A stretch of DNA of 64,000 bases from Schmidtea nova (taxonomy: Eukaryota), in assembly GCA_044892505.1 (NCBI GenBank), contig CM097884.1:111600001-111664000 (forward strand), read 5' to 3'. The notes beneath the pieces were generated by a model. That model was not told where the DNA came from. It saw only the letters and a list, made by a program, of their open reading frames with translations, and made no database searches. A program made the translations under genes and the position numbers. Below, one piece after another: positions 136 through 60,697 of the stretch; the stretch's first letter is position 1, and every line of letters begins with the position of its first letter.

Positions 136-512
136 ATGGAGTAAGATTTTTATTTGATTAGTTATTTATTTTAATTAGTTCTATTCAGGTATTACATCAA
201 GGTAAAAAACTATTGGGAAATCAATTTATTGGAGTATTTCCTCTGGATAAAATACCTTATTTGAAAATGAATCAAGCCATCATTGTAAATACTCAGACAT
301 CTACGTTGGGCGGTGAACATTGGATTGCAGTTTACGTGAAACCAGATCGAATACATGTATTTGATCCATTTGGATATTATTATCCGAATTTACTTGTTCG
401 AAAACTACAAACTATTGGTAAACCTATTGTGTATAATAGAATTCGATATCAGCATCCTTTAACAATCACTTGTGGTGAACATTGCCTTGCATGGTTGAAA
501 TCAATGTTATAA
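136..512 (+). CDS. Adenain-like (adenovirus-type) cysteine protease of the Polinton; predicted join(136..140,179..512)
   Basis: Motifs GEHWIAV (His), FDPFG (Asp) and QHPLTITCG (Gln, Cys). The ORF-track start at 213 is a TTG. Removing a 38-nt GT..AG intron (141-178) gives MDSIQVLHQGKKLLGNQFIGVFPLD. Confidence 0.85.
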
Positions 513-543: not shown

Positions 544-945
544 ATGTCTTGTTATTTTATCGATTTTTATGGTTATAATGAAATGGGTGGAACAACAATT
601 AAGGAATTATGTATAATGAATGTTAATAATATTTTCACACCCCAGTATTATATATACAGTGATTTATCTTTCTGGCCTGATCGTATAGAATCGTTTGAAG
701 GACAAGATTATTTTTGCCCAAAATGTATAATGGATGATATCACAGATAAAGGAGCTATTTTCTATGTTACCGATAATGAAAAGATGTATGTTTTGAAGAA
801 GTATTTCCCGAAATTAAGATTAATCAAGTATACTTATAAAGAAGTTGAATATGTTCCTGAAAACATTTCATGTCCCTATAAAGACCATTGTATGTGTGCC
901 TATAAAGGGTGCTTGTCTGCTGTTGTAGATTATTTAAAGCAATAA
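544..945 (+). CDS. Conserved Polinton accessory protein, 133 aa, function unknown
   Basis: Clean ATG..TAA ORF between protease and PolB. N-terminal IDFYG..IKELCI and C-terminal CPYKDH.MCAYKGC. A clearly homologous decayed copy is present in copy B (about 55200-55480). Confidence 0.75.
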   Translation: MSCYFIDFYGYNEMGGTTIKELCIMNVNNIFTPQYYIYSDLSFWPDRIESFEGQDYFCPKCIMDDITDKGAIFYVTDNEKMYVLKKYFPKLRLIKYTYKEVEYVPENISCPYKDHCMCAYKGCLSAVVDYLKQ

Positions 946-1347: not shown

Positions 1348-1631
1348 ATGAATAATATACGAATTTCAAAGGAACGACATCTCGCAGGAGGTGTAAATGG
1401 TAAATTTATTATTTTTATTTTTAATTTTATTATTATTAATTGCTTTCAGAAATGAATATTGCGCGAAATATCGCTCATGTTATGATGGGACAAGAGGATC
1501 AATCCATAGCTATGAATGTTGCTCCAAGGATTCGAATTAATGAGAATAATGGGATTCGATTTTTGGGTAATATTTATTTTTATTATTACTATTATTTTTA
1601 TTATTATTTTACTTTAGTTAATAATGATCGC

Positions 1632-1669
<38 letters not shown>

Positions 1670-4600
1670 CGAAGCATCTAGGATGGGTACATTTTCGTCA
1701 ATGGGACGAACTAATTGTAATTTATTTATTTATTTTATTAATATTATTTCATTATAAATGTTTCAGATAATATGAATATTATGACAAATGTTGATATGGA
1801 CGATGAGGTCCCGAATCATGATGATGTCCCGAGAAATGCTGACGTCCCGAAAGTTGCTGACGTCCCGAGAAATGCTCCTGTTAATCTGGATGCCCCAATT
1901 TATGGGAAGAACAAATGTAAGTATTAATCATTATTGATTTATAATTTAACTTTTTTAATTTAACTTTTTAATATAAATAATACTTTTAATATATTATTTT
2001 TAAATAATTTAGTAATGGTTTATAAAAACAATTACTAAATGATTTAAAAGTATAATATTAAAAGTATTTATGTTATAGCATTATATTATGAAATATGAAT
2101 TATAATTTTTGTTAAAAGACATTTATGTACTAGAATTTTATTATGAAATATCCATTTTCAATAAAAAGTATTTATGTTATAGCATTATATTATGAAATAT
2201 GAATTATAATTTTTGTTAAAAGACATTTATGTACTAGAATTTTATTATGAAATATCCATTTTCACTAAAAACATTTATGTTATACCATTATATTATGAAA
2301 TATCCATTTTCACTAAAAAACATTTATGTTATACCATTATATTATGAAATATCCATTTTCACTAAAAAACATTTATGTTATACCATTATATTAGGAAATA
2401 TCCATTTTCACTAAAAAACATTTATGTTATACCATTATATTATGAAATATCCATTTTCACTAAAAAACATTTATGTTATACCATTATATTATGAAATATC
2501 CATTTTCACTAAAAAACATTTATGTTATACCATTTTATTATGAAATATCCATTTTCACTAAAAACATTTATGTTATACCATTATATTATGAAATATCCAT
2601 TTTCACTAAAAAACATTTATGTTATACCATTATATTATGAAATATCCATTTTCACTAAAAAACATTTATGTTATACCATTATATTAGGAAATATCCATTT
2701 TACTTTTCAATAAAAAACATTTATCTTATAGAATTATAATATGAAATGTCTATTTTACTTTTCAATAAAAAATATTTATGTTATAGCATTATATTATGAA
2801 ATATGAATTATCCATTTTCACTAAAAACATTTATGTTATACCATTATATTATGAAATTTTGATTTTTCAATAAAGATATTTATATTATGAAATATCTATT
2901 TTACTTTATATTATTTTTTATTTTCATTATATATATTGATAATTTATTTAATTTTTTTTTTTTATTTCAAAATTCAGGTTCAACCTACAAAATTTTTTGC
3001 AACAGTAGGTTCCATAATGATTGTCATATCATTATGGAAAAATACTACTCGATTGCATTTAATACTGTTACCCACCTCATATGCCCCACCTGTAAAATTA
3101 TCGAAATTTGCCCATATTTAGATTTCTTTAATAGGCACTGTAGCCATCTTTCACAGTTTCAGCCTTCTAAGAAAATTTTATTTAAGCAACTTTTTCCTAA
3201 TTTTATTAATACTATAAATAATCCTATAATTAATACTATAAATAATAATAATCTAAATAATACAAATAATCTTAATAATACAAACAATCTAAATAATACA
3301 AACAATCTAAATAATATCACTAATACAAATAATACAAATAATAATCTTACTAATAATTTAAATAATATCACTAATACAAATAATATCACTAATAATACAA
3401 ATAATTTAAATATTAATAAAAGAAAACATATTAAAATACCGGATTCAGTTCCTACTAAAATTCAAATAATAGATCTCACTGATGATGAATTAATAGTCAT
3501 CAGTGATGATGAAAATTTAAATAATAATGTAAATAATTTAAATAATTTAAATAATAACCAAATCGGATATGGTGCCGTCGAAATCGTCAATGACTTAAAT
3601 AACAATCATATAATTGTTAAGATGGACGTGGAAAATCTTAATTTGAAAACAGTATCAGTACCGACAATTCTTTTAGATAAATTAACTTTTGAAGTTAACA
3701 AATATAAAACTGTCAAAATCCAATTCTGTTTGAAGGTGGAATTTGAGAAGGACGATGAATTACAATCGTTCGTTATCTCAAATTCTGCCAGGGTCTGGAG
3801 TGATACCTTCATTGAGGAAGGTATTGCTCTTTTAAATGAAAAAATCATCGCGATAAATGAGAAAGGTAGTAACTGGACTATCTCAAAAGTTGAATACATT
3901 AGCTTTGTCTTGACCAGATACTCTGAAATAACTCGATTAAGCGGAAGTCAGTTTATCGAAACTCCGAAATCTTTAAGGAAAAAGAAATGTTTAGTTAATG
4001 TAGTAAATCAGGACAACTTTTGTTTTTTATATAGTTTCCTTTCTATAATTAAATATGACAGTTTAACAAATGAAACTCGTTGCATTCCTTCCTCTTATAA
4101 TCTTTCACAATTGAATTATGACCCCAATGATATGCCTATGAGACTTGGTAATATAAGTAAATTTGAGAGACAAAACCCAGGTTATAGCGTCAATGTTTTG
4201 TCATATGATGAAAATCCCTTATTAGACCTTATTGATGAAAATCAGGATATTGTCCTTAAACATCCTTTTATTGACTTAATTTACAAGTCAAAAGTTGTAG
4301 GTGGTACCCCAATAAATCTGTTATTGCTTCAAAACAGAAAAACTTTTCATTATATAGGTATCTTTGATTTGAATCGTTTTTTGAATTGCCGTAATAGCGC
4401 TATAACTTCGGTAAGGATTTGTAGTAAATGGTGTCCGAGGTGCTTAAATGGTTTTAGAAATGATGAGGTTTTCAATAGGCATAGGGGTCTTTGTGATAAA
4501 AATCAAACTGGTACAACTTTGTACACTTTACCAAAAAATAAGATGCTGGAATTTACTGAATGGCGCAAAACAGTGACTCCTCCCTTTGTTATTTATGCCG

Positions 4601-7014
4601 ACTTTGAGGCAATCTTACCTGCGGACACCAGGTATTTCCAAAAGCATTTGCCTATTTCTGCGGGTTTGTTATTAATTAACAACTTTACTGGACAAAAATC
4701 CTATAAATCTTTTGCCGGCCTTAATTGTGTAGAGGATTTCCTAAATGAAATAGAACTTATAAGTCGCCATATAGTAACACCGTACTATTATAAAAACGCT
4801 AATAAAGCTATGATAATTAGCAATGAGCAACAAATTGAATTTAACAACAGCACAATTTGTTATTTATGTAAAAAGCTATTATGTCGACCTGTTAGGGACC
4901 ATGACCATTTCACCGGTCTTTTTCTTGGAGCAGCTTGCTCAGAATGTAATAAAAATAGGCAGATTAGACATACCCTTCCTGTCATCTTTCACAATTTAAA
5001 GGGGTATGATCTACACCATATTCTAAAATATGGTTTATCTAAATACAGAAAATGGAATATTAGCTGTATTCCATTAACCAGTGAAAAATTTCTTAGTCTT
5101 TTTGCTAGGATTGACTCTTTAACTGTCAAATTCATAGACTCATACCAATTCGTCAGCGAGTCTTTAAATAATGCTGTCAAAACTCTTACTTCCTTACCAC
5201 TCACCGAATCAGAATTTCAGGGTACTATAATAACAGCCAAGGGCATTTTTCCCTATGATGCTGCAACTTCCTTAGAAGTTTTACATTCTACTTTAGCTCT
5301 CCCGCCGATCTGGAAAGATGTAAAGCCAGAAGAATATGCAATGGCACAAAGAAAATGGGTTGAAACATCATGTAATTCACTTTTTGATTACATGATGGTT
5401 TATTTAAAACTGGACGTTTTTTTACTTGCTGATTTTTTCCAGCAATTTCGTTTCAAGTCTATTAATCATAATAGACTTGAACCTCTGAATTTCCTCGGGA
5501 TTCCAAGTTTATCTTGGAGTTCTGCCTTAATGACCTTAGAATCTCCAATCGAGCTCCTCACCGATATGGAAATGTACAATTTTTTCGAGGGCGGTATCCG
5601 TGGCGGACTAACTTTTATTAACAAACACTATGTAAAAACAAGCCCGGATACCGCATTGCTTTACATAGACATCAATAACTTGTATGGATGGGCCTTAAGC
5701 CAACCTTTACCTTGTTCGAATTTTGAATGGGTCACAGATGACCACTTATTAAATGAAATCGTTTGTCAGTGCACATCGGTTGATCTAGATGCACTTCATT
5801 ATGGCTACACCATAGAAGTGGATTTGGAGATACCGGCATCAATTCACGACAAACTGGATGATCTTCCAGTTGCCGCTGAAAAGATGTGTGCACCGGGATC
5901 CAAGGTTGAGAAGCTGATGCTCACGCATAATCCAAAGAAGAACTATGTTCTTCATTGGCGGCTTCTGCAACTATTTCTTAAATTAGGCATCGTGATAACA
6001 AAGGTCCACAGGGCCATAAAATTTAATCAAAGCAAAATTTTTTTAAATTATATTAATACCAACACGACGTTACGATCGGCGTCAACAACTAAATTAGATC
6101 GAGATTTTTATAAATTATTAAACAACAGTCTTTACGGCAAGACTGTTGAAAATTTAAAAAAGCGTATTAATTTGCGCCTATGTAATAATGCCGAAAAATT
6201 ATTAACTTATTGCTCGAAACCTACGTTTCGTAAAACTAATAAAATAGACAATGATCTTATTTCTGTCTTGCTGCGAAAGGAGTCAGTATGTTTGGATAGA
6301 CCCAGCTACATCGGTCAAACTGTACTGGATTTATCCAAACTAAGAATGTACCAGCTACAGTATGTAGAGTTACAAAAATATCGTGACGACTACAACTGTA
6401 AGATTAACATCGTCGCTGGGGATACTGACTCCTTTTTTCTTGAGGTCAAAAACTGTAGTCTTGACACTCTTTTACCGGCTATGGTTAATGATTGCTTGCT
6501 GGACACCTCTAATTATGACCCTATGGATCCTTTATACAACAGAAACCTTGACTCTGTCATTGGAAAGTTCAAAGACGAGAGTAAAGGGATGTTGTATAAA
6601 GAGTGGGTGTTTCTTAGACCGAAATGCTACAGTTTAATGGGTGATGAGGAAAGTATGAAGGCTAAGGGGATATGCATGAAGGATACTGGACTAACTCATC
6701 AGTCGTATCTCGATTGCTATTTAAATAACAAGATCTATACGGTCCCCCAGTTTAGGATAACATCGAAAAATCACCAGCTTTTTAGTGTGAAAAATAATAA
6801 GCGTGCATTAAACTGTAGAGATGATAAGCGCAATTGGGTAGGGAAAAATAAAAGCCTGGCATATGGCCATTATAGAGGGGGTAACAGTATTTTAGATACG
6901 GAGCAGCCTCAGCAGCAGATTCAACAACAACAACAGATACAACAGCTACAACAACAGCTACAAAATGATCCGTATTTATTTTACGAAGAGCCGGAGCATA
7001 ATTATTTGCAATGA
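1348..7014 (+). CDS. Protein-primed family B DNA polymerase (pPolB), spliced; predicted join(1348..1399,1450..1566,1618..1716,1767..1916,2978..7014), 1484 aa
   Basis: Exo I YADFE, Exo II HNLKGYD, Exo III YLKLDV; polymerase motifs YIDINNLYG, KLLNNSLYGK and GDTDS; endonuclease VII-like insert CYLC..VRDHDH.TG.FLGAACSECN. Four GT..AG phase-1 introns (50, 51, 50, 1061 nt) join upstream exons in frame to the 2887..7014 ORF, whose first 30 codons are intron-like AT sequence. Confidence 0.9.
2040..2880. repeat. 49-bp minisatellite inside predicted intron 4 of pPolB
   Basis: Unit TATACCATTATATTATGAAATATCCATTTTCACTAAAAAACATTTATGT recurs at 2281, 2330, 2379 and onward, with degenerate copies on both flanks. 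Confidence 0.9.
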
Positions 7015-8129
7015 TGGCTGGAAAAATTATCTAATCAGAAAATGGAAAAAGAAAAATAAGAGAAAATCAAAAAACAAAATTCAAAAAATCAAAAAACAGA
7101 AAATCAAAAAAAAAATAAAAAAACCAGAAAGATATGCGAATGCACAATCGGCCCTCTTCAGGGCCACAATTTATGATTGTTAAAAAGTTTTTGCAATTTT
7201 AGATTTTTAGAAAACAGTACCGATAATAAAACAGAAAGGAAAACAGATTCAGAAACCAGAAAATAAAACTGAAAAGAAATATGAAAAGTAACCGAAAAGA
7301 AAATACATAAAAGAAATATGAAAACCGAAAAGAAAAACCGAAAAGAAATATGAAAACCGAAAAGAAAAAACGAAAAGAAATATGAAAAAAGATTGAGAAT
7401 GAAATAATGGTCCTCTTTAGGGCCTTATTTTATGATTGTAAATAATATTGCGCAATCAATAAAAACTATGAAAATATTTTATTTTGTTTTGTTTGTTTGT
7501 TTTTGAAATTATTTTTATAAGTTAATATTATTATTTTTTATAAGTTATTATAATTATAAGTTATCATTATTATTTTTATAAGTTATTATTATTATTTTTA
7601 TAAGTTATTATTATTATTAATATTATAAGTTATTATTATTATTATTATTATTAATATTATTATTAACACTATCATTAACACTATCATTATTCTTTTTTTT
7701 TTATAAGTTATTATTATTATTAACACTATTATNNNNNNNNNNNNNNNNNNNNNNNNNNNNNNNNNNNNNNNNNNNNNNNNNNNNNNNNNNNNNNNNNNNN
7801 NNNNNNNNNNNNNNNNNNNNNNNNNNNNNNNNNNNNNNNNNNNNNNNNNNNNNNNNNNNNNNNNNNNNNNNNNNNNNNNNNNNNNNNNNNNNNNNNNNNN
7901 NNNNNNNNNNNNNNNNNNNNNNNNNNNNNNNNNNNNNNNNNNNNNNNNNNNNNNNNNNNNNNNNNNNNNNNNNNNNNNNNNNNNNNNNNNNNNNNNNNNN
8001 NNNNNNNNNNNNNNNNNNNNNNNNNNNNNNNNNNNNNNNNNNNNNNNNNNNNNNNNNNNNNNNNNNNNNNNNNNNNNNNNNNNNNNNNNNNNNNNNNNNN
8101 NNTATCACTAATATTATCATTATTATCAA

Positions 8130-8205
<76 letters not shown>

Positions 8206-8350
8206 AGTTNNNNNNNNNNNNNNNNNNNNNNNNNNNNNNNNNNNNNNNNNNNNNNNNNNNNNNNNNNNNNNNNNNNNNNNNNNNNNNNNNNNNNNNNNNN
8301 NNNNNNNNNNNNNNNNNNNNNNNNNNNNNNNNNNNNNNNNNNNNNAAATA

Positions 8351-8695
8351 ATGATGAAAATAGTTGAACGATTAAAATGTATCAATCAAACTTTTGTTAA
8401 AAAAGAATATGAAGTCAGATACCAAAATCAAACAGTTGAAAATGAAAAAACAGCCATTGTATTACATTATATAAGTTTATTTATATTAATAATTATAATG
8501 ATGTTATCGGCATCCATACGGCTGGAGAAGATTTCAAATATTCCAAAGAATAATATTCCGACAAATACTAGTATTCCGATGAATAATATTACAATGAATA
8601 ATATTCCTATGAATAATATTCCGAGTAATAATCCAGATGTAAATAATTTTGAAACTAAATTTTGTACACGTACACAACGATATATTTATAAATAA
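8351..8695 (+). CDS. Possible small Polinton ORF with one hydrophobic segment and xNNIP repeats
   Basis: 114-codon ORF next to a gap, between pPolB and the terminus. No recognised homology. Confidence 0.25.
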   Translation: MMKIVERLKCINQTFVKKEYEVRYQNQTVENEKTAIVLHYISLFILIIIMMLSASIRLEKISNIPKNNIPTNTSIPMNNITMNNIPMNNIPSNNPDVNNFETKFCTRTQRYIYK

Positions 8696-8709
8696 ATTTT
8701 ATTTTCAAT

Positions 8710-9458
8710 GTCTTTGTTCATGTTGCACGTGTATTGCATTGTCTTTGTTTAAGTTGCACGCGTGTTGCAAAGTCTTGCACGTGTATTGCATTGTCTTTGT
8801 TTAAGTTGCACGCGTGTTGCAAACCTTTCGATGACTAATATTTCTGTTAAAATTATTTATGTAAAAAAAAAATTTGTGTAAAAAAAAAAAATTAATTTAC
8901 AATTANNNNNNNNNNNNNNNNNNNNNNNNNNNNNNNNNNNNNNNNNNNNNNNNNNNNNNNNNNNNNNNNNNNNNNNNNNNNNNNNNNNNNNNNNNNNNNN
9001 NNNNNNNNNNNNNNNNNNNNNNNNNNNNNNNNNNTCTCGAAAAAGTTCTTTGTTTAAAAATTTTTACGCCCACGCATTAAAAAGTTCTTTGTTTAAATTT
9101 TTTACGCCCACGCATAAAAAGTTCTTTGTTTAAAAAAAAAAATTTAAAAAAAAAAATTTGTATGAAAAAAAATTTGTGAAAAAAAAATTTATGAAAAAAA
9201 AAATTTGTGAAAAAAAAAAATTTGTGTTAAAAAATTTTGTGTTAAAAAATTTTATGTTAAAAAATTTTGTGTTAAAAAATTTTGTGTTAAAAAATTTTGT
9301 GTTAAAAAATTTTGTGTTGAAAAAATTTGTGTTAAAAAAAATTTGTGTTAAAAAAAAAAATTTGTGTTAAAAAAAAATTTTGTGTTAAAAAATTTTGAAA
9401 TTTAAATTTGGCGCGAAAAAAAATTTTTCAAAAAAAAAATTCAAAAATTTTTGGCGCG

Positions 9459-9490
<32 letters not shown>

Positions 9491-9600
9491 CCCCCCCCCC
9501 CCCCCCGGGGGGGTTCGGAAAAAAAAGTTCTTTGTTTAAAATTTTCCGCCCACGCATTATGACTCATTTCTTTGTGTTTGACTCCACACATCTACCTACT
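8710..9600. repeat. Subterminal repeat region and probable right TIR of Polinton A
   Basis: Tandem TTGCACG(T/C)GT units (8720-8825), AAAAGTTCTTTGTTTAAA..CGCCCACGCAT units (9040-9130, 9520-9557), a ~15-bp TTTTGTGTTAAAAAA array (9160-9390), a C16G7 run (9491-9513) and terminal CCTACT. The partner TIR is outside the window. Confidence 0.6.
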
Positions 9601-26852: not shown

Positions 26853-27376
26853 TTAAGTAACAATGAACTTCTTTTACTTTATTGTTTAATTTTGATATTA
26901 TCCTCTCATTTCTCAATTTCTAGCTCTCATTTCTTTTTCACCAAACTCCAAGACATCACTCCGTTTACTCTATTAATTTTGCCCAATCATTTTATTTATT
27001 TATGATATTATTTAATTTTATTATTTAGGTATCCTCAACCATATAAAAATGCACTGAATCTCTTACATTTAGAATAACTCAATTTGTTTAAATTTCTGCA
27101 AGATTTGCATAATGGTAAAATCATTTTGTAAGGATGGACACATTTTAATGATTATGTTGAATACATCTTTAAATCTAACAAAACATAATCAATATTTTTT
27201 CAATAAAATATCCATTTTTGCGATTTCATATTTGTTGGAATTTCTAATTCAGGTACCGTGGAACTTTCTTTAGCTATTACTCCAAATTATATCTGTTTGC
27301 AACAACATTGACAGTTCTAGTTAGGCTTGTGTAGTGGTCTAGAAAGCCGATACCCAAAATTCTCTCAAATGATATT

Positions 27377-27631
27377 TCACAAACCATGAAATTGATCCTG
27401 CGTAAACCACTGAACAATATCAAAAGTATTAGATGAACCACATGGAAAATGACTCAAGGGATCCATAAATTGGCCCATTACTTTTAAACATTTCATTCTA
27501 ACGTGAGAATATGTTGAGTTTAAATTTCGAACAATTTGCATTATTTGGAAATTGTTGATATCATTACATTTAGAAATTGAATTAATTTCTTTCAAAATTT
27601 CATATTTTTCAGGTGATAAAACATCGGTCAT
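27377..27631 (-). pseudogene. Captured 5' fragment of an unidentified host gene inside the LTR, antisense to the element (second copy 32961-33215)
   Basis: ORF MTDVLSPEKYEILKEI...VRMKCLKVMGQF...FDIVQWFTQDQFH with a weak HEAT-like look, followed by a candidate 46-nt GT..AG intron (27384-27339). Head-to-head with the NOMO fragment. Confidence 0.5.
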
Positions 27632-27881
27632 TGTGGTTGGACTTGCAAAATGATTGGTAAAAATGATATATTTTAATTTTTTACATTTGCATTTATTTTG
27701 CATTGAATAACATTGATTTTTTTATTTTGACTGAGGGTTTGGTATTGTTTGAGGTTTGTTTTAATATTTCTCGTGGAATTTATATTTGGCTGCTAAAGTT
27801 TAAAAATTGTAAGAAACTGGTGAATATTGTTTAAAATAAATATTTTTTAAAAAGTGGACTACTAGTTTTTGATAATTTAAA

Positions 27882-28285
27882 ATGCGTTATTCTATTGTTA
27901 AAATTTTAATTGTCCTACAAATTTTAACACTTCATATTTTGCAAATGTGTCACAGTAATATTGTTGGATGTGGTGGTTTCGTTAAAACAGATATCATTGG
28001 ATTTGCTTATCATAAATTATCAGCACAATTAATGTTTTCGGACGGAACTCTAAATTATGTGACTGATGTCCCTCCAAATGGAGCGCATTCTATTCCTATA
28101 TATGATTTCGGTTTCTATGTTACCAAAATTATGAGTCCTGACGGTTGGAATATTGAACCAACTGATGGCTACGTTATAAACATTAATAGCCAAGATTCTC
28201 GTCCAGATGACTATAATTTTCATTTCGCTGGTTTTACCGTACTTGGTAAAGTATCAACAGCTAATATTGAAACAGGTCCACTAAA
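27882..28285 (+). pseudogene. NOMO: Captured 5' coding fragment of nodal modulator (signal peptide plus first domain) in the 5' LTR
   Basis: IVGCGGFVK..GTLNYVTDVPPNG.HSIPIYD.G...KI.SPDGWNIEP...NFHFAGFTVLGKV...GP matches the N-terminus of NOMO proteins as I recall it (VVGCGGFVK..GTLKYQTDCAPNNG.FMIPLYDKG...KIEPPLGWSFEP..INFVFTGFSVNGKV). Confidence 0.9.
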
Positions 28286-28287
28286 AA

Positions 28288-28305
28288 TGGTGTCAGAAGT
28301 GGGAT
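28288..28305 (+). promoter_or_regulatory. Primer-binding site, probably tRNA-Leu
   Basis: TGGTGTCAGAAGTGGGAT is complementary to a eukaryotic tRNA-Leu 3' end (..ATCCCACTTCTGACACCA). Confidence 0.9.
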
Positions 28306-28309
28306 CTGA

Positions 28310-29359
28310 ACCCACGCCTCCATTCGGTATGGCGGCGCACCATCAAGTATAGATGATGACAACGAATACGACGATAAAAAGCCCAAACCTTTGCCTAAAA
28401 AGCAAAGAAATGTTCGAGGCGCTGCTTCTTCCGACAGTAACTCTAGACAAAATATTAATTGTCCGTTCTTTTTAGATGAGAACCAATCACCATCAACTTG
28501 GTTACTCACACTCGAAGCCCTTTTAGAAAGTTGCGGCGTTACTTCTTCAAGAGATAAATTCTATAGAATATTATCTCTCATTCCACAGGAACATTTAGGC
28601 CGCCTTTCTGCCGTTATTCGCCGCACAACGCAAAAAACCTTTCTAACTCCTTTTGAGGAACTCAGCACAGGACTGCTGGATTTATTTAAAGTCCCCAAAC
28701 AGGAAATATTCTCAAAATATTTCAAGGCCCAATCTTTAGGAAGTTGTAAGCCGACAGAATTTTTGCAGAAGGCTTTTACAGACCTCGAACAAATGCAAAA
28801 TGGGACAGCACCCGACCAAAACATGCTACGCCAGTTCTTTTTAAGTGTACTTCCGACACACACACAACAGATACTTGCTTTATCGTCTCCGGTAGATATA
28901 CACGAATTAGCAAAAATGGCGGACAAAATTCATGAAATTGTTCCGTTAGGTGGTACACCAGGCTCATCTGTCAATAGCCTTCCTATCGCAAGCCCGCCGC
29001 TCCCATCATCAACAGAAAATGCTCTTCTTTGCGCCATTCGCGACCTTACTGATCGTATTTCGCATTTGGAACGTTATAAATCTCCGTCTCGAAATCCACC
29101 ACCTTCCAATGCGTTTGACCGACGACGTTCCAAATCCCCGGCTTATTCAAACATTTGCTTTTATCATACCAAATACGGGACGAAAGCAAATTGTTGCAAC
29201 ATAGGATGTGGCTGGCGAAACAAAGCAGCTACCCTCAAAATCATTGATAAGTGCATCTATCACGCACGATTTGGGGATAAAGCAAACAAATGCATTGTAG
29301 GTTGCAAATCCTACAATTCCCCACCATCTTCTCCAAACAACATTCAAAAAAACTTGTAA
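28310..29359 (+). CDS. gag: Gag (open frame 28310-29359, no early in-frame ATG)
   Basis: PSTWLLTLEALLESCGVTSSRDKF capsid-type N-terminus, and two C-terminal CxYHx(K/R)(Y/F)GxKAxxCxxxC knuckles typical of this Gypsy group. Confidence 0.9.
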   Translation, partial: THASIRYGGAPSSIDDDNEYDDKKPKPLPKKQRNVRGAASSDSNSRQNINCPFFLDENQSPSTWLLTLEALLESCGVTSSRDKFYRILSLIPQEHLGRLSAVIRRTTQKTFLTPFEELSTGLLDLFKVPKQEIFSKYFKAQSLGSCKPTEFLQKAFTDLEQMQNGTAPDQNMLRQFFLSVLPTHTQQILALSSPVDIHELAKMADKIHEIVPLGGTPGSSVNSLPIASPPLPSSTENALLCAIRDLTDRISHLERYKSPSRNPPPSNAFDRRRSKSPAYSNICFYHTKYGTKANCCNIGCGWRNKAATLKIIDKCIYHARFGDKANKCIVGCKSYNSPPSSPNNIQKNL

Positions 29360-32300
29360 TGCCATCACTCGTTGCGGCTGAAGTTGATGGCAAATTACCT
29401 CCTGCACTCGATTTATTTCTAGTGAGAGCTGAATCCCCTTCTTTCAGCGTTTCTCCGAACTTTTGCAGTACTCTCGATTTTCTTGTTGACACAGGATCCA
29501 GCCTCTCCATTCTTCCTTTACAATATGAATCTCTTTGCGATGATTCCGTTTATACCTTGAAAGCCACCAACGGAACCATGGTAAATACACACGGTTCTTT
29601 TTCAGCAAATTTCGTTCTTCCTTCTTTAAATCAATCTTTTATATGGAAGTTCTGTGTCGCTGACGTTATCCATCCCATTCTTGGCTCAGACTTTTTGAGT
29701 TCACACAATTTGTTGGTCGATTGTCGTTCACGCCTTTTGAGAACACATTCGCACACAAATTCGTCTTTAGTCATTGACACAAAAAAACTCAACATTTCCA
29801 ACTCATCTGACGTTTCTGTATCTACTGCCATTCAACCTATTCATCCAAAGATTGCTACAGACATTTTAAATAAATACACATTTTCACAAACAATGCCTTT
29901 ACGAAAGCAAGTCTCTGTAACATCTTACTGCCATACTATCAACACCACAAACTCTCTTCCGGTACGTTGTAAAGTACGCCCTCTTTCGAACGAAAAACTA
30001 GATTTTGTTCGCTCCGAATTCGCTACTTTGTTGAACGAAGGCATTATTAAAAGATCTAAATCTCCATGGTCTTCACCACTTCATCTCGTACCAAAGAAAG
30101 ACGGAACTTTCAGACCTTGTGGAGATTATCGTCGTTTAAATATGATTACGGTTCACGACTCATATTCTATGCCTTTAGTAAACGATATTTTGTACAGACT
30201 TACCGAGGCCAAAATATTTTCAACTATCGACTTAGTTAAGGCCTATCACCAAATCCCAGTTAAAGAATCTGACGTGGAAAAAACCGCAGTTTTAACACCT
30301 ATCGGACTTTTTGAGTACGTTTTCATGCCGTTTGGCCTTAGAAATTCCGCTCAAACCTTTCAAAGACACATCGACCATATTTTAATGGATTTACCATTCG
30401 CAATTCCTTATATTGACGATATCCTTATTGGTTCTAAGGATGCGGAAACACACAAAAAACATTTAGATGCAGTTCTTTGCGCACTTTCTTCCAATAACCT
30501 ACAAATTAATTTAGATAAGTGTTTATTTTTTAAAGAAGAAGTCCGTTTTTTAGGTCACATTATCTCGGGTCAAGGCGTCAGTCCACCATCCGACAGACTA
30601 GATACTATATCTAAGTTTCCTCTCCCACAAACTGTTACTCAACTTCGGAGTTTTCTGGGAACAGTAAACTATTGCCACCGTTTTATTCCTAAAATTTCAG
30701 AAATTCTTTCACCACTTTCTGGTTACTGTTCTAAACCAAAGAAATCTATAATTCCTTGGAACGATACTTCGTTGCTCGCTTTTGAGCATGCCAAAACAGC
30801 CCTTGCAAACATACAGACTTTGCATTATCCACGAGGAGATTTGCCATTACGTTTAACCACAGACGCGTCAAACATAGCAATCGGTGCCGTTCTGCACCAG
30901 ATAAACGGTTACATCCCAGAGCCACTAGAATTTTACTCAAAGAAACTTACCTCACCACAACAAAAATATTCAGCTTTCGACCGCGAACTTCTCGCTATTT
31001 ACCAATCGGTTAAACATTTTAAGCATTTACTCGAGGGCCGTCTTTTTAGCATCCATACAGACCACAAGCCACTTGTTTACTTGTTCTCAATGAAAGACCC
31101 TTCTCCGAGACAACAACGCCAGATTAGCTATATTAGCGAATTTTCTTGCCAAATATACCACATCGCCGGCAGTGATAACATTATAGCTGATTGCCTTTCA
31201 CGAAATGTAAACGCAATTTTCCACTGTCCTTTATTTTCTATCGACGAACTCCAAAATAATCCTCCAGATGCCATTGATATTTCGAAATTTGGCGACAAAC
31301 ACATAATCAAAGACAAAATTCACTACGACTCATCACTTCCTGGCACTCTTCGCCCAATCTTGAATGACTCCATGAGAAAACTGGCTTTTCTCTCTGTCCA
31401 CAACACGCACCACCCAGGTTCCTCAGCCACTTTTAATCTATTACACACGTGTGTAGTTTGGCCAAACATGAGACATGATGTTAAACTCTGGGTTGCACAA
31501 TGCATAGGATGCCAACGTTTTAAGATAACTAAGCACACTAAACCTCCAATAATTCATTATCCCACTGGCAACCGTTTCGAAAACTTACACATTGACATCG
31601 TCGGCCCAGTCCCAAGTGACTGCGGTTTCTCTTACTTATTAACCATGATCGACCGCAAGACTCGTTGGTTCGAAGTCATTCCTTTACGCACCATTTCTTC
31701 TAACACTATCGCAACTTCGCTAATTCAAAATTGGATTTCACGATATGGAGTTCCCAAGTCGATCATCAGTGATCGCGGAACACAGTTTGAATCTAACTTA
31801 TTTCAAGCTTTGACCGCTAAACTTGGGATACAACATCTTCGTACGACCACATATCATCCACAAACAAACGGGTTAGTCGAACGTTTCCATCGTACTTTAA
31901 AAGCTTCTCTTGGCATTCTTTCTGAACAACAAGGTTGGACAAAGGTTTTACCTTTCGTATTATTAGGTTGGCGAAATACACCTTCTAGGACTACAGGATC
32001 ATCACCTGCTCAATTACTTTTCGGTACAAACACATCATTACCAGGTCAACTTGTCGACTTTGATAACTCTCCTACTTTGGAAGATCTCGCGATTGCTAGA
32101 GACCATTTTTTATCAATCGACACTAATCCTGAATTCTCTTCCGCGACAACCTATAAACCTTACATTCCAAAAACATTCGAAAATGCATCACACGTCTATA
32201 TTAGAAATATAACTGATGCAAGTTTAAAGCCAAGATATTCCGGACCTTACAAGCTCGTCGATATTAAAGAAAACAACGCGAAAGTGATCGTTAACGACTC

Positions 32301-32700: not shown

Positions 32701-32901
32701 TTGCACCACTTTCCACCAAGTTCTATTAGTTTTTTTTCGGTTTCCTAAATTTCTTTCGCAATTCTTTCTCAGGTTATTCCATTTCTTTCACGACTCTTTC
32801 CAAATACTTTCCGGACACTACAAAATACCATATTATTATATACTAAACTACTATATTACGTATCTACATTATAGTATTTCAAAATGTGCTCCGCATCTTC
32901 C

Positions 32902-32913
32902 GATGGGGGCTGA
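32902..32913 (+). promoter_or_regulatory. Polypurine tract
   Basis: GATGGGGGCTGA immediately precedes the 3' LTR. Confidence 0.75.
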
Positions 32914-33869
32914 TGTAGTGGTCTAGAAAGCCGATACCCAAAATTCTCTCAAATGATATTTCACAAACCATGAAATTGATCCTGCGTAAACCACTGAACA
33001 ATATCAAAAGTATTAGATGAACCACATGGAAAATGACTCAAGGGATCCATAAATTGGCCCATTACTTTTAAACATTTCATTCTAACGTGAGAATATGTTG
33101 AGTTTAAATTTCGAACAATTTGCATTATTTGGAAATTGTTGATATCATTACATTTAGAAATTGAATTAATTTCTTTCAAAATTTCATATTTTTCAGGTGA
33201 TAAAACATCGGTCATTGTGGTTGGACTTGCAAAATGATTGGTAAAAATGATATATTTTAATTTTTTACATTTGCATTTATTTTGCATTGAATAACATTGA
33301 TTTTTTTATTTTGACTGAGGGTTTGGTATTGTTTGAGGTTTGTTTTAATATTTCTCGTGGAATTTATATTTGGCTGCTAAAGTTTAAAAATTGTAAGAAA
33401 CTGGTGAATATTGTTTAAAATAAATATTTTTTAAAAAGTGGACTACTAGTTTTTGATAATTTAAAATGCGTTATTCTATTGTTAAAATTTTAATTGTCCT
33501 ACAAATTTTAACACTTCATATTTTGCAAATGTGTCACAGTAATATTGTTGGATGTGGTGGTTTCGTTAAAACAGATATCATTGGATTTGCTTATCATAAA
33601 TTATCAGCACAATTAATGTTTTCGGACGGAACTCTAAATTATGTGACTGATGTCCCTCCAAATGGAGCGCATTCTATTCCTATATATGATTTCGGTTTCT
33701 ATGTTACCAAAATTATGAGTCCTGACGGTTGGAATATTGAACCAACTGATGGCTACGTTATAAACATTAATAGCCAAGATTCTCGTCCAGATGACTATAA
33801 TTTTCATTTCGCTGGTTTTACCGTACTTGGTAAAGTATCAACAGCTAATATTGAAACAGGTCCACTAAA
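32914..33869 (+). repeat. 3' LTR
   Basis: Direct repeat of 27330-28285, followed by TSD GCTTG. Confidence 0.95.
33466..33869 (+). pseudogene. NOMO: Second copy of the captured NOMO fragment, in the 3' LTR
   Basis: Translation identical to 27882-28285 up to the LTR end, then runs into flanking DNA. Confidence 0.9.
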
Positions 33870-41130: not shown

Positions 41131-41186
<56 letters not shown>

Positions 41187-54123: not shown

Positions 54124-54916
54124 AGTAGGCAGTTATGTGGAGCATGAGTCATCGCCGAACAAAGGAAATGACGTCACCCCCCGTGGAGGGGGGTAAAAAT
54201 TTTTTATGGCGTTATCGATGACTCATCGGCGTGACTCATCGATATGACTCGTCGATGACGTCATCGATGACTCATTTCAAATTCAAATTTTAAATTTGAA
54301 TTTCCAAAGGTCAAACATTCAAACAAGGGTATCATTCGAAAGGTCTTTGAGAGGTGTACACAATGGTCATACCCTCGATGGTTTATGGAGAGTCCTTAAC
54401 CTTCAAAGGGTCCAAAACCTTCAAATTTTTTTCAAACCTTGTGTGTAATATATCATTCGAAAGGTAATACCGATGTGCACACAATGGTTATACCTTCGAA
54501 GGTGTATGGTGTGTGCTCAACCTTAAAGGGGTCAAAATCCTTCAAATATTTTTAAACATTGCAAGTTATATATTGTAATTGAGATTTGAGTATGATGGTC
54601 GACCCTTGAAGGGTCCAAGACTCAAAATTTTAAAAACTATATAATATATGTATCAAACAAAAGGTAATTGAGAGTCGAGTATGATGGTCGTACCCTTTAA
54701 GGTCTGTGGTCGACCCTCGAAGGGTCCAAGGTTTAAAACTATGTAATATATGTATCAAACAAAAGGTAGTTGGAAGTTGAGTATGATGGTCATATTCTTG
54801 TGTGTGTATGTGTGTCAACCAGATAATACTATAATATCCACATAAGTCACTTGTGCGTAAGACAGATAACAGTACGCCGTTGTGAGTCCCTTCCGTGTGT
54901 AAGACAATATCCATTG
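54124..54916. repeat. Left TIR of Polinton B (at least 793 bp, runs into a gap)
   Basis: Reverse complement of 59841-60697 apart from a few SNPs and small duplications. Confidence 0.95.
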
Positions 54917-55199
54917 NNNNNNNNNNNNNNNNNNNNNNNNNNNNNNNNNNNNNNNNNNNNNNNNNNNNNNNNNNNNNNNNNNNNNNNNNNNNNNNNNNNN
55001 NNNNNNNNNNNNNNNNNNNNNNNNNNNNNNNNNNNNNNNNNNNNNNNNNNNNNNNNNNNNNNNNNNNNNNNNNNNNCTTATAAAAATTCAAACAATCAAA
55101 AACTAAAATTGAAATTACTAAATTTTATTGAATATAACATTTATAAAATAACAATTATGCATATCGTGCACTGTCAATTCTCCAAATTGGAGTTATAAC

Positions 55200-55480
55200 A
55201 TCTTTTGTATCGATTTTATATCCCTGAATAATTATGGTAATAAACCAATTTTCTTGATCCTTGTATTCGATAGATTGAAGATACTAGCGCTTTTTTCTAT
55301 GTCACTGATGCTGATTAACTCCAAGTCTTGAAGAAATATTTCCCGAAATGGAGATTAATTAAATATAATTTTAAAGAAATTGAAGATGTTCCAGAAAATA
55401 TATCTTGTCCATATAGGGATCATAGTATGTGTGCCTATAAAGGATGTTTGAGTGCAGTTATTGATTATTTAAAGCAATAA
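55200..55480 (+). pseudogene. Decayed homolog of the 133-aa accessory gene
   Basis: FYVTDAD*LQVLKKYFPKWRLIKY..VPENISCPYRDHSMCAYKGCLSAVIDYLKQ* aligns to the C-terminal half of 544..945. Confidence 0.9.
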
Positions 55481-55522
55481 ATGTATTGTTATTTTAATAA
55501 ATTTTAATAATGTGTATCAATG

Positions 55523-55555
<33 letters not shown>

Positions 55556-55936
55556 ATTATTATTTTATAAATATTATTATCAGCTCGTTATTTTTATTTT
55601 ATTTTATAAATGTAATTATTATTATTATTTAATAAATATTATTAAATTATTCGTCACATGTATATCATAAAGCATGATGACATCAACAAAGCCTCTGTCG
55701 ATAAAGTCACGACATAAAGACACATGGGGTCGTGAACTTACATGTCTTTATGTAGTCACATAACAACTATCGTGACATAAACAAACATGCAGTATGTGTG
55801 CATTTATTTCACTATCCTATCTCGATTCTAATTGGATGGTTAATAAAACTTGAAATTATCTGCTTTATATAGTCTATACTTGTATTATTTCGTCACTTTT
55901 AATCACAAAATCTATTATCAAGTCTTAAAAACCAAA

Positions 55937-58900
55937 ATGAATAATTTAATGAATCAAGGACGAGTTGCTCGAAAATCATACGGAGCTGGAGTCAATGGTA
56001 AATTTACTTTTTATTTATTTACTTATTTATTTTTAATATTATTAGAAGTTAATATAGCGAACAATATCGCGAACAATATCTTAAATAACAACGGATCTGT
56101 CACTGGGACTGGAGTCATTGGAACTGGAGTCATCGGAAATAGAGTCATTGGTATATTTACTTTTATTATTGTTGATTTTAATTGACAATAATCTTTAGAA
56201 ATTAATAATGTAATAAATTACTGTCAAACTGATGCTCAAATTACTGCTGGTTCTCGTTGTTAATATTGAAAATCAGGATGAGTTTTGCTTTCTTTATAGT
56301 ATTTTGGCTATTTTAAAATATTATAGTATTATTCCTGAGTTGAGACATCTTCCTTCCTCTTATAACCTTTCACAACTAAAGTATGATGCTGCTGATATGC
56401 CTATGAAACTTGGAAATATTTCTAAGTTTGAACGACAAAATCCAGGGTATGCAATTAATGTTTTGTCGTATGATGAAACTGCGTTGATTGATATAAGTAA
56501 TGCCGACTCTATAATGAAACATCCCTTTATAGATATAATTTATAAAAGTAAGGTTGTAGGAGGAACACCAATTAACTTACTGCTTTTAGATAATAATAAA
56601 AATTTTCATTACACCGCCATAACTGATTTAAATCGATTCTTATATTGCAGAAATGCATCAATAACTACTGTCCGTATTTGCTGTCAATGGTGTCCTCGGT
56701 GTCTTAACGGTTTCCGAACTGATGATTGTTTTAATCGTCATCGTGGTCTTTGTGAAAATAATCAATTGGGTACAACTTTGTACACTTTGCCTAAAAACCC
56801 TTTGCTTGAATTTACTGATTGGAAGAAAACTGTCACTCCTCCCTTTGTCATTTATGCCGATTTTGAGGCAATTTTACCGAAGGACACCAAATATTATCAA
56901 AAACATTTACCGATTGCAGCTGGCTTATTACTAATAAATAACTTCACCGGTGAAAAAATCTACAAATCATTTTTAGGGCTTGATTGTGTAGATCAATTTC
57001 TTCATGAAATTGAAGATATAAGTAAATATATTGTAAGTTCCTATTTTTATAAAAATTACAATAAGAAAATGATCTTCACTGGCGATGATCAAATAACTTT
57101 TAATAACAGCACAAACTGTCATTTGTGCAAGAAACTGTTAGTAGAACCAGTTAGAGATCACGACCATTTCTCAGGTCAATTTATTGGTGCAGCTTGCAAA
57201 AAGTGTAATCTTAGCAGGCAAATAAGACACACTTTGTCTGTTGTCTTTCATAATTTGAGAGGGTATGATCTCCATCATATCCTCAAATTTGGCTTATCTC
57301 GGTATACATCTTGGAATATAAGCTGCATTCCAATTACTAGAGAGAAGATTCTTTCACTTTTTGCTAATATTGATTCTTTGTCTGTGAAATTTATTGACTC
57401 TTGTCAATTTGTGTCTGAATCATTAAAAGGTGCTGTAGCAACACTAACATCTTTGCCATTAACATCTTCAGAGTTCAAGGGAACTATAATTAACAGCAAG
57501 GGAATTTTTCCTTACGATGTTGCGACCTCTTTAGATGTTTTAAGGTCAACATCAGAATTCCCACTAATTTGGAAAGGTGTTGATGCAGAGGAGTATGAGT
57601 TGGCTAAAGTAATATGGCGAGAAACATCATGTACTTGCCTTTTGGATTACATGATGGTGTATCTAAAACTTGATGTATTTTTACTGGCTGACTTTTTTCA
57701 GCAATTTCGGGCTAAAAGCATTGCCCATAACAAACTTGAGCCCTTTAATTTCTTGGGGATTCCCGGTATGAGTTGGAGTTCGGCTTTGATGACTCTTGAG
57801 AAACCGATTACATTATTGACCGACATGGAAATGTACAATTTCTTTGAAGGGGGAATTCGTGGGGGGGGCTTACTTTTGTAATCAAAAATTATGTTAAAAG
57901 TAGTGCGGATACAGAGTTGTTGTATATCGATATCAACAACCTGTATGGATGGGCTTTATCACAAAAGCTACCCGAGGGTAATTTTCAATGGGTGACCGAT
58001 GATAATTTATTAACTAATTTATTAATTGAATGCGCTACGGTAGATCTAAGTTTGCTTAGCTATGGTTATACCATAGAAGTAGATTTAGAAATAACGGCAT
58101 CTATTCACGATAAATTGGATGATTTTCCAATTGCCACTGAAAAGATGTGCGCTCCTTTTTCCAAAGTTAAGAAGCTGTTGCTAACGCACAACTCCAAAAA
58201 GAACTACGTTCTTCATTGGAGGCTTCTACAGATTTTTATTAATTTAGGTGCACTTGTAACAAAAATACATAGGGCAATTAAATACGACCAAAGCTATGTA
58301 TTTAAAAATTACATTGACACAAACAAACAGTTAAGAGCAACATCAACAAGTAAATTAGACAAAAATTACTACAAGTTGCTCAACAACAGTTTGTATGGAA
58401 AAACTGTTGAGAACTTGAAAAAACGCAATTCAGCACAAAAACTAATCACATATGCCTCAAAACCGGTATTTAGGAAAACCACAAGGATAGACGACGATTT
58501 GATTTCGGTTTTGCTTAGGAAGGAATCAGTGTGTTTGGATAGACCTAGTTACATTGGGCAAACTGTACTAGATTTATCCAAACTGAGAATGTACGAGTTG
58601 CAGTACAATGAGTTACAAAAATATCGTAACGAATTGAACTGTCAGATTAATATAGTTGCTGGAGACACTGATTCCTTCTTTTTGGAGATTAAAAATTGTA
58701 GTCTTGACATTCGTTTAGCTGCTATGATTAGAGACCAGTTGCTTGACACATCCAATTATGACCCTAATCATCCGTTATATAATAGGAACATTGACTCTGT
58801 CATTGGCAAGTTCAAAGACGAGAGTAAAGGACTATTATATAAGTAGTGGGTGTTCCTGAGGCCTAAATGTTACAGTTTGTTGGGTGATGCGAGTAACATG

Positions 58901-59275
58901 AAGGCTAGGGGAGTTGATTTGAAAGATACTGGACTGAGTCATGAGTCGTATCCTGATTGTTATGTGAACAATAGGATTTACAAGGTACCGCAATTAAGAA
59001 TATGCAGCAAAAATCATCAGCTATATAGCATTAAGAACAACAAAAAAGCACTGACAAATATGGACGACAAAAGGTTTTGGGTAACAAAAAATAAAAGTTT
59101 AGCCTATGGCAATTTTCGGATGGGTGATACCTTTATTGATGAACCAGATGACGATCCAGAACCTTTCAATCAGCCAATCTCTCTAGTTTTGTATCAAAAT
59201 AATGAAGGAAATGATCAAGACAATCCAGATGATTTTATTGATGATTTTAACAATGATCATGATTATTTTGCTTGA
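55937..59275 (+). pseudogene. pPolB pseudogene of copy B; leader exons 55937-55997, 56046-56150 and 56199 onward
   Basis: Clear protein similarity to pPolB of copy A. Disabled by a deletion near 56255 that removes the region homologous to about 2978-3985, a frameshift in the G-run near 57860, a 6-codon deletion near 58425 and a TAG at 58844. Confidence 0.95.
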
Positions 59276-59840
59276 TTTATTTTCACTCAATAGATTTGTT
59301 AATTTATTTGTTATCGTTTTTAAATGTTTTTATTTGTAAAACTTTGTATTAGTTTTTGAAAGTTTTTANNNNNNNNNNNNNNNNNNNNNNNNNNNNNNNN
59401 NNNNNNNNNNNNNNNNNNNNNNNNNNNNNNNNNNNNNNNNNNNNNNNNNNNNNNNNNNNNNNNNNNNNNNNNNNNNNNNNNNNNNNNNNNNNNNNNNNNN
59501 NNNNNNNNNNNNNNNNNNNNACTATAGATCAAAATTTTTTTTTTTTATAAAAAAATTTTGATCTATAGTCATTATGAGAATTATTGATAATAATAATAAA
59601 AAAAGATCAAAGGTNNNNNNNNNNNNNNNNNNNNNNNNNNNNNNNNNNNNNNNNNNNNNNNNNNNNNNNNNNNNNNNNNNNNNNNNNNNNNNNNNNNNNN
59701 NNNNNNNNNNNNNNNNNNNNNNNNNNNNNNNNNNNNNNNNNNNNNNNNNNNNNNNNNNNNNNNNNNNNNNNNNNNNNNNNNNNNNNNNNNNNNNNNNNNN
59801 NNNNNNNNNNNNNNNNNNNNNNNNNNNNNNNNNNNNNNNC

Positions 59841-60697
59841 AATGGATATTGTCTTACACACGGAAGGGACTCACAACGGCGTACTGTTATCTGTCTTACG
59901 CACAAGAGACTTATGTGGATATCATAGTATTATCTGGTTGACACACATACACACACAAGAATATGACCGTCATACTCAACTTCCAACTACCTTTTGTTTG
60001 ATACATATATTACATAGTTTTAAACCTTGGACCCTTCGAGGGTCGACCACAGACTTTCAAGGGTACGATCATCATACTCGACTCTCAATTACCTTTTGTT
60101 TGATACATATATTATATAGTTTTTAAAATTTTGAGTCTTGGACCCTTCAAGGGTCGACCACCCACCTTCAAGGGTTGACCATCATACTCAAATCTCAATT
60201 ACCTTTTTTTTGATATATAACTTGTAATGTTTAAAAATATTTGAAGGATTTTGACCCCTTTAAGGTTGAGCACACACCATACACCTTCGAAGGTATAACC
60301 ATTGTGTGCACATCGGTATTACCTTTCGAATGATATATTACACACAAGGTTTGAAAAAAATTTGAAGGTTTTGGACCCTTGTAAGGTTAAGGACTCTCCA
60401 TAAACCATCGAGGGTATGACCATTGTGTGCACCTCTCAAAGACCTTTCGAATGATACCCTTGTTTGAATGTTTGACCTTTGGAAATTCAAATTTAAAATT
60501 TGAATTTGAAATGAGTCATCGATGACGTCATAAAATTCAAATTTGAAATGAGTCATCGATGACGTCATCGACGAGTCATATCGACGAGTCACACCGATGA
60601 GTCATCGATGACGCCATAATTTTTTTTACCCCCTCCACGGGGGGTGACGTCATTTCCTTTGTTCGGCGATGACTCATTCTCCACATAACTGCCTACT
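59841..60697. repeat. Right TIR of Polinton B
   Basis: Inverted copy of 54124-54916. Confidence 0.95.

Follow-up and report, generated by a model that had tools for sequence, protein, structure and literature searches.

The start of the polymerase gene in this stretch of Schmidtea nova DNA raises two questions: does a Polinton, whose core genes are described as intronless, here place a chain of spliced leader exons in front of its DNA polymerase (pPolB), and why would each of these exons preserve the reading frame? The description itself is as the original prediction had it, for the accessible text of PMC8097293 reports no introns in intact elements, that of a nematode preprint (10.1101/2022.07.12.499685) gives the core genes as intronless, and both confine introns to cargo genes. 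We analysed the window, by which we mean the whole 64,000-nt stretch, together with further copies and relatives of the element. Two Polintons, each with a terminal 6-bp duplication, were located.

8659 nt before the window start (locus L031) to 9600: Polinton with the window polymerase, 18.26 kb, ends read with the neighbouring DNA
544..945, + strand: Cys-rich 133-aa accessory ORF, unbroken, no Pfam match
8346..9600, no strand: right terminal inverted repeat, terminating in CTACT, then the 6-bp duplication CTCAAC
54124..60697, + strand: second, internally deleted Polinton, family B, 6-bp duplication TAGCAC
55937, + strand: leader ATG of the family B copy, with introns at 55998-56045 and 56151-56198

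The termini of the first element read AGTAG..CTACT on inverted arms of ~1.2 kb that are 95.5-99.8% identical to each other, and with the target duplication CTCAAC they have the AG(T)..(A)CT plus 6-bp form of Polinton/Maverick ends. Its polymerase shows the order terminal protein, vOTU, exonuclease and palm of the protein-primed family B polymerase of this group, while Pfam alone returned no PF03175 match on the window polymerase protein. Pfam placed PF00665 on integrase exon 1 and a chromodomain on exon 2, as in a retroviral-like integrase, and recognized a packaging ATPase (PF04665, E 8.9e-8) and an adenain-type protease (PF00770, E 4.8e-6). The A32 ATPase and both capsid-like ORFs are unbroken. 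A 390-aa part of the candidate major capsid ORF matched PF21738 at E 0.005, which is below the cut-off, and a PDB sequence search with this ORF gave no useful match; both capsid-like ORFs match ORFs on polinton-like contigs, and the minor capsid is named by position only. A TBP-like protein is also encoded. The accessible text of PMC8097293, PMC8502044, 10.1101/2022.07.12.499685 and PMC10748475 describes animal Polintons/Mavericks with the same inverted ends, AGT..ACT termini, 6-bp duplication and gene set (pPolB, rve integrase with chromodomain, A32 ATPase, adenain protease and capsid-like genes), and the original assignment to the Polintons is borne out by ends, duplication, polymerase, integrase, ATPase and protease alike. 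The element is young and very abundant, with many identical copies: all 40 matches listed for positions 1150-1570, the best 40 of 1387 candidates, were 100% identical, and so were all 150 scored matches for exon 1 of the integrase, in which open frames reached at most 158 aa.

Exon-by-exon translation of the polymerase region resulted in the following layout.

1240-1244, 1266-1271 and 1293-1298, + strand: ATTGG, TATATA and initiator-like TCACTT, a likely polymerase II promoter (predicted function)
1348..1399, + strand: leader exon 1, 52 nt, kept in 30 of 30 family A loci
1400..1449, + strand: intron 1, 50 nt, phase 1; retention leads to a stop at 1453; homologous intron in family B
1450..1566, + strand: leader exon 2, 117 nt, from translation and copy comparison
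1567..1617, + strand: intron 2, 51 nt, phase 1; retention keeps the frame open; least secured of the introns
1618..1716, + strand: leader exon 3, 99 nt, with an AAC repeat; copies span 93-111 nt, in multiples of 3 throughout
1717..1766, + strand: intron 3, 50 nt, phase 1, from translation, copy comparison and a frame-blind model
1767..1916, + strand: leader exon 4, 150 nt; 132, 150, 153 or 156 nt among copies
1917..2977, + strand: intron 4, 1061 nt, phase 1; 662-1061 nt among copies, its acceptor the most conserved junction
2978..7014, + strand: exon 5, 4037 nt, domain names after PMC11161782
about 2980-3204 and 3205-3558, in exon 5: Cys/His-rich zinc-finger-like module, then Asn-rich disordered linker
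3559-3573 and about 3577-3918, in exon 5: Gly motif QIGYG, then terminal-protein-like domain
4021 (Cys) and 4348 (His), in exon 5: vOTU-like protease, followed by exonuclease and palm

Starting at ATG 1348, the five exons of the pPolB gene add up to 4455 nt, or 1484 codons plus a stop, and the exon and intron coordinates, phases and protein length given in the original prediction were all reproduced. The terminal-protein and vOTU-like domains correspond to those in the accessible part of PMC11161782. The leader contributes a variable 139 of the 1484 residues (9%), ahead of the zinc-finger-like module and the terminal-protein domain, and so lies well outside the latter. The four leader introns of 50, 51, 50 and 1061 nt, the last containing a 49-nt tandem array at about 2057-2888, all run from GT to AG in phase 1, and their removal leaves a frame without internal stop. 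With a GC content of 8-15% as opposed to 37-42% in the leader exons, with pyrimidine-rich acceptors and with host-like size and composition, they have the features of U2-type introns. For comparison, 15 introns called by pattern in 7 of 9 chaperonin loci of the host measured 37-71 nt at 11-20% GC, a range to be read with the GC ceiling that was part of the filter; by size and composition, the Polinton introns resemble the short AT-rich introns of the host.

Intron 2 needs separate treatment: its length is a multiple of 3 and it is stop-free, so that ORF 1452-1757 crosses it and its removal is not required by the frame, and the case for it is confined to composition, splice ends and homology. 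The argument that such junctions are unlikely by chance held in part. No chain of three such introns with stop-free exons turned up in 300 2-mer shuffles, in 300 shuffles of 25-nt blocks or in 94 tiles cut from the non-Polinton DNA of the window; the four junctions, however, are probably not independent of one another, and intron 2 lies in frame. Upstream of the ATG, the CCAAT/TATA-like motifs noticed earlier were found again as ATTGG (CCAAT in reverse, at -108) and TATATA (at -82), followed by TCACTT at -55, and the motifs keep this order in six of the seven own-genome families, family D having none within the 200 nt examined. A bacterial promoter scan, irrelevant here, returned 2 sites against 2.5 expected.

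We then compared the leader among copies and families. The family A sample comprised 30 of the 40 listed loci, the window being one of them, picked by identity over 1150-1570. All 30 contained the four leader exons free of stops, intron 4 was closed within the locus in 29 and was found in all three length classes, and exons 3 and 4 changed in length only by multiples of 3, a test that is partly trivial because the loci were picked by identity and the exon 3 change is that of a trinucleotide repeat. The second Polinton of the window, whose polymerase is 72% identical to that of the first, belongs to family B, in which 24 of 25 resolved loci (30 fetched) have three leader exons of 61, 105 and 141 nt and the remaining one is frameshifted; family B intron 1 is itself in frame and stop-free. 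More broadly, we fetched 40 of 91 PF03175 matches, of which 38 extend to the zinc-finger start, and a phase-1 acceptor lay at the homologous point in 37 of these 38 loci, with polymerases 50-60% identical. Across copies and diverged families, then, the leader introns are seen to be conserved in position with the open frame restored on predicted splicing, in line with what had been expected of other copies.

The same loci bear on the reading that translation starts without any intron, at ATG 2887 or at about 3034, in or next to exon 5, leaving the upstream exons as an untranslated leader or a separate small gene. An ORF caller does report a frame of 1375 aa that opens at 2887, and the internal Met is conserved and serves as the start of the database gene calls P0001, P0003 and P0016. 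However, these three are single-ORF calls, 2887 falls within the pyrimidine tract of the intron and has a counterpart in 0 of 38 other loci, and the open stretch upstream of the acceptor contains an in-frame Met in none of the 38. Conserved Cys/His residues, which in intronless relatives come directly after the start codon, are located upstream of the first internal Met, and the leader frames are open and in phase across families, with exons 1 and 2 under purifying selection (see below). We regard an intronless start as very unlikely, and consider that the leader would, with high probability, be spliced to the main exon of the polymerase to encode a 1484-residue precursor.

Next to its conserved position, the leader shows a variable number of exons. 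The seven own-genome polymerase families carry one to five of them, with hand-called coding leader exons numbering five in C1, four in C2, three in E and one each in D and F, all phase 1 and stop-free. Hand calls, made with the frame known, put the leader introns in phase 1 in 21 of 21 cases in the seven own families and in 12 of 12 on four contigs from metagenomes. All 19 short introns that a frame-blind model called were phase 1; its errors were a 4-nt displacement of the long-intron donor (6 of 9 cases), one missed short intron, two moved acceptors and false exons in three long introns. Tandem duplication of exons is visible in two cases. Exons 3 and 4 of C1 are paralogues where C2, with a polymerase core about 99% identical, has a single exon, and metagenome contig L068 contains three 66-nt exons, two with a common start. 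Within the family A leader no mutually paralogous pair was detectable.

Since tandem duplication of exons itself yields frame symmetry, the symmetry can be explained without exon skipping, which the original prediction had proposed: symmetric exons would be retained so that regulated alternative splicing yields many N-termini, as in micro-exon genes (MEGs). In favour of this, the internal exons are all multiples of 3 and the introns all phase 1, mis-splicing would be harmless to the frame, and the leader diverges much faster than the core. Yet the duplications in C1 and L068 already account for the symmetry, and families D and F keep open polymerase frames with one coding leader exon each. Leader exons gave pN/pS values of 0.15-1.13, calculated on 15-46 codons each, against 0.23 for the core (A versus B), and exons 1 and 2 gave 0.15-0.20 between C1 and C2; there was no excess of replacement changes in the leader exons that would point to positive selection. 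By these ratios the leader exons appear to be under weak or relaxed constraint and exons 1 and 2 under purifying selection.

The exons of MEGs are 6-36 nt long, frame-symmetric and alternatively spliced, they account for the bulk of the coding sequence, and the product is a secreted protein with a signal peptide. The leader shares with parasitic flatworm MEGs the array of frame-symmetric exons, but its internal exons measure 54-192 nt in the own-genome families (a single 24-nt exon occurs in metagenome contig L067), it forms 9% of a replication protein, its skipping is putative, and the exon 1 peptide is, by eye, polar and basic without a hydrophobic signal. Under intron definition, moreover, the usual splicing error is retention rather than skipping. 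In planarians, a length of about 50 nt speaks for intron definition, according to the accessible part of PMC13594981. Regulated skipping is thus improbable, the likeness to flatworm MEGs finds no support beyond frame symmetry, and the variation in exon number that we observed is one between families.

Introns are not restricted to the polymerase: the window Polinton has seven inherited ones, distributed over polymerase, integrase, protease and one accessory gene, and the described trait of intronless core ORFs does not apply to it, as the first three of these genes are all interrupted. The protease is organized as follows.

136..140, + strand: adenain-type protease exon 1, start codon plus two bases
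141..178, + strand: protease intron, 38 nt, phase 2
179..512, + strand: protease exon 2, PF00770 Peptidase_C5, E 4.8e-6

The protease intron, 38-41 nt and phase 2, follows the protease start in all 24 own-genome loci that include this start (one with a mutated donor), and the layout recurs in 3 of 3 family B loci and in family G. The integrase intron, 42-46 nt and phase 1, interrupts the D-x-G-x-E-F motif in 22 of the 23 loci with both halves, the 23rd having a mutated donor, as well as in 3 of 3 family B loci. Between families, pN/pS is 0.13-0.28 on both sides of this intron, and both integrase halves are, by this measure, under purifying selection.

Outside relatives allowed us to ask when these introns were acquired. 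The D-x-G-x-E-F motif was unbroken in all 11 outside contigs that show it (82 fetched), and among integrase homologues up to 69% identical it was unbroken in 104 of the 120 listed (the best 120 of 466), the others comprising 3 with the motif near the start and 13 without the region. The genome itself also contains family G, with 118 scored matches, which combines an intronless integrase and a capsid module with a retained protease intron and has no polymerase. In a quick integrase tree the four intron-bearing integrases formed one group, with a support of 89 that was not starred, surrounded by intronless kin, G among them. Because close outside relatives and one own-genome family lack the integrase intron, it was likely gained in this lineage, and here the proposal of host-type introns gained in the lineage has its clearest support; because family G keeps the protease intron, and from the integrase tree, the protease intron is likely the older and the integrase intron the younger of the two. 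For the polymerase, a quick 70-row tree, rooted arbitrarily and leaving out L067 and P0010, united the nine own-genome rows in one clade (97-99). Inspection by eye of eight metagenome contigs, 39-52% identical, gave four whose N-terminal region contains 2-4 short phase-1 introns, either after the zinc finger or in contigs without a zinc finger, three that are intronless at the start, and one that may have an untranslated intron. Three of the intron-bearing contigs were in the tree and fell on another branch among intronless kin, which points to at least two origins of N-terminal polymerase introns, with the caveat of the arbitrary root.

Family G also raises the suspicion that the interrupted copies are dead ends, their AT-rich inserts being slippage damage and the copies mobilised by an intact intronless helper. 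An argument against this from the non-existence of such a helper was overturned by family G itself: with an intronless integrase family in the same genome, helper absence is no argument against trans-complementation. Nevertheless, family G has the protease intron and no polymerase, the inserts have GT..AG ends at identical positions in families 50-90% identical, the last leader intron is present in 37 of 38 sampled polymerase loci, and both integrase halves are under purifying selection, all of which makes degeneration hardly credible.

A more serious competitor to growth by duplication is that the leader introns arose one by one, through insertion or carving at AAT-G/GT-type sites within Asn-rich, low-complexity coding DNA, with codon make-up causing the phase bias; it is a live rival because no duplicate pair is detectable in the family A leader. 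Most donors indeed follow AAT-G or AAT-T, a separate clade has phase-1 introns on the opposite side of the zinc finger, the introns of the integrase and of the left-arm gene are phase 1 as well, and a GGTAAG direct repeat flanks the integrase intron of family C. Against it stand the clear exon duplicates in C1 and L068, and the phase 2 of the protease intron and phase 0 of the intron in the nested gene of family D indicate that insertion is not confined to phase 1. We judge separate gain of each intron to be doubtful, yet a reading to be taken seriously.

Our preferred explanation, duplication of exon-intron units in a host-spliced leader, combines these observations, and we give it a probability of roughly 0.7 as a whole, including constitutive removal of the introns and their stepwise gain. 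Host RNA polymerase II would start at the CCAAT/TATA/initiator promoter and the host spliceosome would remove the short leader introns constitutively, and the element likely depends on host splicing. The leader would provide the start codon and a low-complexity, variable piece of 139 residues before the zinc-finger-like module. The all-phase-1 pattern would go back to a single ancestral phase-1 intron and to later tandem duplication of units made up of an exon and an intron, each new exon being symmetric because it was duplicated together with its phase-1 intron. N-terminal variety would then lie between families, in DNA, rather than among splice forms, and the introns would have been acquired stepwise while the lineage lived in its host.

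The element's own protease may in addition cut at a Gly-Gly-type motif before the terminal-protein domain and trim the whole front end, which would account for the tolerance of the front end to free change. Among the 33 of 47 proteins with long enough N-termini, 17 have a GG or GxG motif in the 40 aa preceding this domain, compared with 2 of 58 background windows; every one of the seven own families has it, and similar motifs are found in a small ORF before the capsid gene. The strict adenain consensus fits 8 of the 33 proteins, and the window motif QIGYG does not fit it. The front end of the polymerase may thus be a removable pro-piece. A bolder extension, which we consider a long shot, is that a virus-like element has adopted exon shuffling, a cleavable, intron-split front end being duplicated, swapped between families and alternatively spliced against host silencing or restriction. 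This would have happened on no fewer than two occasions within a single polintovirus clade, one which also divides into palindromic segments that are polymerase-only or capsid-only.

Among known systems, integrated dinoflagellate maverick-polinton-like viruses likewise contain intron-type inserts, which the accessible text of PMC11957031 describes as copies of mobile introners, mostly inserted after integration. Many near-identical introns at unrelated sites would be expected of introners. The introns of the window Polinton differ from each other by eye and are of low complexity; diverged families share them as fixed features, and they are passed on by inheritance in elements copied en masse. 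In adenovirus, a relative of Polintons, the first three residues of pTP and of the DNA polymerase come from a short upstream exon, and the introns are long. According to the accessible part of PMC7851563, pTP and polymerase (region E2B) are likewise made from spliced nuclear transcripts, and adenoviral introns fall mostly in untranslated regions, whereas those of the window Polinton are short, interrupt coding sequence and are associated with one to five leader exons. Cryptophyte polinton-like viruses also have introns in a PLV gene, but according to the accessible text of PMC12220804 these are self-splicing group I introns of 309-376 nt that lie in a small ORF. Inherited spliceosomal introns in animal Polinton core genes were not described in the accessible portions of the literature on Polinton, Maverick, polintovirus and adintovirus introns, a scope that leaves aside Repbase, the two founding papers and supplements, nor in those of PMC6431247, PMC11296320, 10.64898/2025.12.11.693146, 10.1101/2024.03.25.586562 and 10.64898/2026.07.28.741278. 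As far as sequence can tell, the feature is real and the element is a member of the Polintons, set apart by inherited host-type introns.

This has consequences for how such elements are counted and classified. Surveys accept only elements with unbroken ORFs as intact, so that lineages like this one are counted as degenerate or annotated with the wrong N-termini. If the catalytic genes of a mass-copying family carry introns by inheritance, the family would have to be transcribed in the nucleus and to rely on the host spliceosome, a point relevant to whether animal Polintons should be seen as transposons or as viruses. Intron gain that is recent and datable is rare in animals. Here, a single genome contains families with and without the integrase intron, with one to five leader exons and in many copies, so that the mechanisms behind intron gain and exon duplication can be tested directly.

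Most of the Polinton introns are near 5' ends. Introns in such positions commonly aid expression and export. Since, in addition, Polintons are targeted by PIWI in planarians according to the accessible part of PMC8532177, it is a reasonable guess that the introns are kept so that the element looks host-like.

In the S. nova genome, the integrase and capsid genes of Polinton families B and C, compared at loci L216-L220 versus L146 and L159, are held in common and are 89-94% identical to those of the window's element (family A), whereas their polymerases are only 75% and 50% identical, respectively, to the window's polymerase. Judged from these sequence identities, the combination of similar integrase and capsid genes with differing polymerases appears to be module swapping. 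We found further arrangements of these modules in the following elements:

Families E and F, elements with paired polymerase genes: L145, L147-L150, L161, L165, L166, L181, L221-L226
Family G, palindromic element: L251 and L252 together (G000:C1:17243516-17257751), with further loci at L227-L250

Elements of families E and F, of about 8.9 and 13.5 kb, carry two polymerase genes inverted to each other, have AGTAGG termini and are bordered by 6-bp duplications, and no capsid genes were found near them. The family G element is a 14.2-kb palindrome without a polymerase, in which each 6.85-kb arm (arm identity 99.8%) contains an ATPase, an intronless integrase and capsid genes, while the centre is occupied by a single protease gene with its protease intron; its integrase has more than 100 matches in the genome, most of them as inverted pairs. 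Taken together with family G, families E and F suggest a two-segment Polinton or helper/satellite pairs.

Introns and accessory genes were also located in the other families and in the left part of the window's element (locus L031):

L031:6791-6836, integrase intron, 46 nt
L031 about 3790-5090, minus strand, left-arm genes of the window's element
L152 about 6550-7120 (also L160), minus strand, nested small gene of family D

The integrase intron, whose length elsewhere is 42-45 nt depending on the family, interrupts the D-x-G-x-E-F core motif within its Gly codon, and in families B and C a GGTAAG direct repeat lies on both sides of it. In the database gene model P0232 a host Prp19-like start is fused to integrase sequence whose first residues lie near this intron's acceptor, which hints weakly at the presence of the intron in a related genome. 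Among the metagenome contigs, L067, L068, L077 and L082 have a polymerase N-terminus interrupted by two to four short phase-1 introns, whose sites differ from those of the S. nova Polintons, and the polymerase start of L065, L066 and L070 is without introns. One of the left-arm genes is TBP-like (PF00352, E 2.4e-13). Another, an acidic accessory gene common to family B, is interrupted early by a phase-1 intron. In family D, a small antisense gene lies within the last polymerase intron; it is itself split by two introns and has promoter motifs of its own.

Other features were noted in the window:

27324-33909, Gypsy-type retroelement region
45913-48648, minus strand, host cadherin-domain exon, 911 aa
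17531-20671 and 39303-44262, further inverted-repeat pairs

The retroelement encodes RT, RNase H and integrase (29290-32700) between direct repeats, each carrying a NOMO1-like ORF (27882-28352, 33466-33909). Elsewhere, dozens of near-identical chaperonin C-terminal fragments (L199-L215; PF00118 positions about 347-488) are spread across the genome, often at spacings of 4.5-5.4 kb, as though a repeat had picked them up. The inverted-repeat pairs are probably other transposons.
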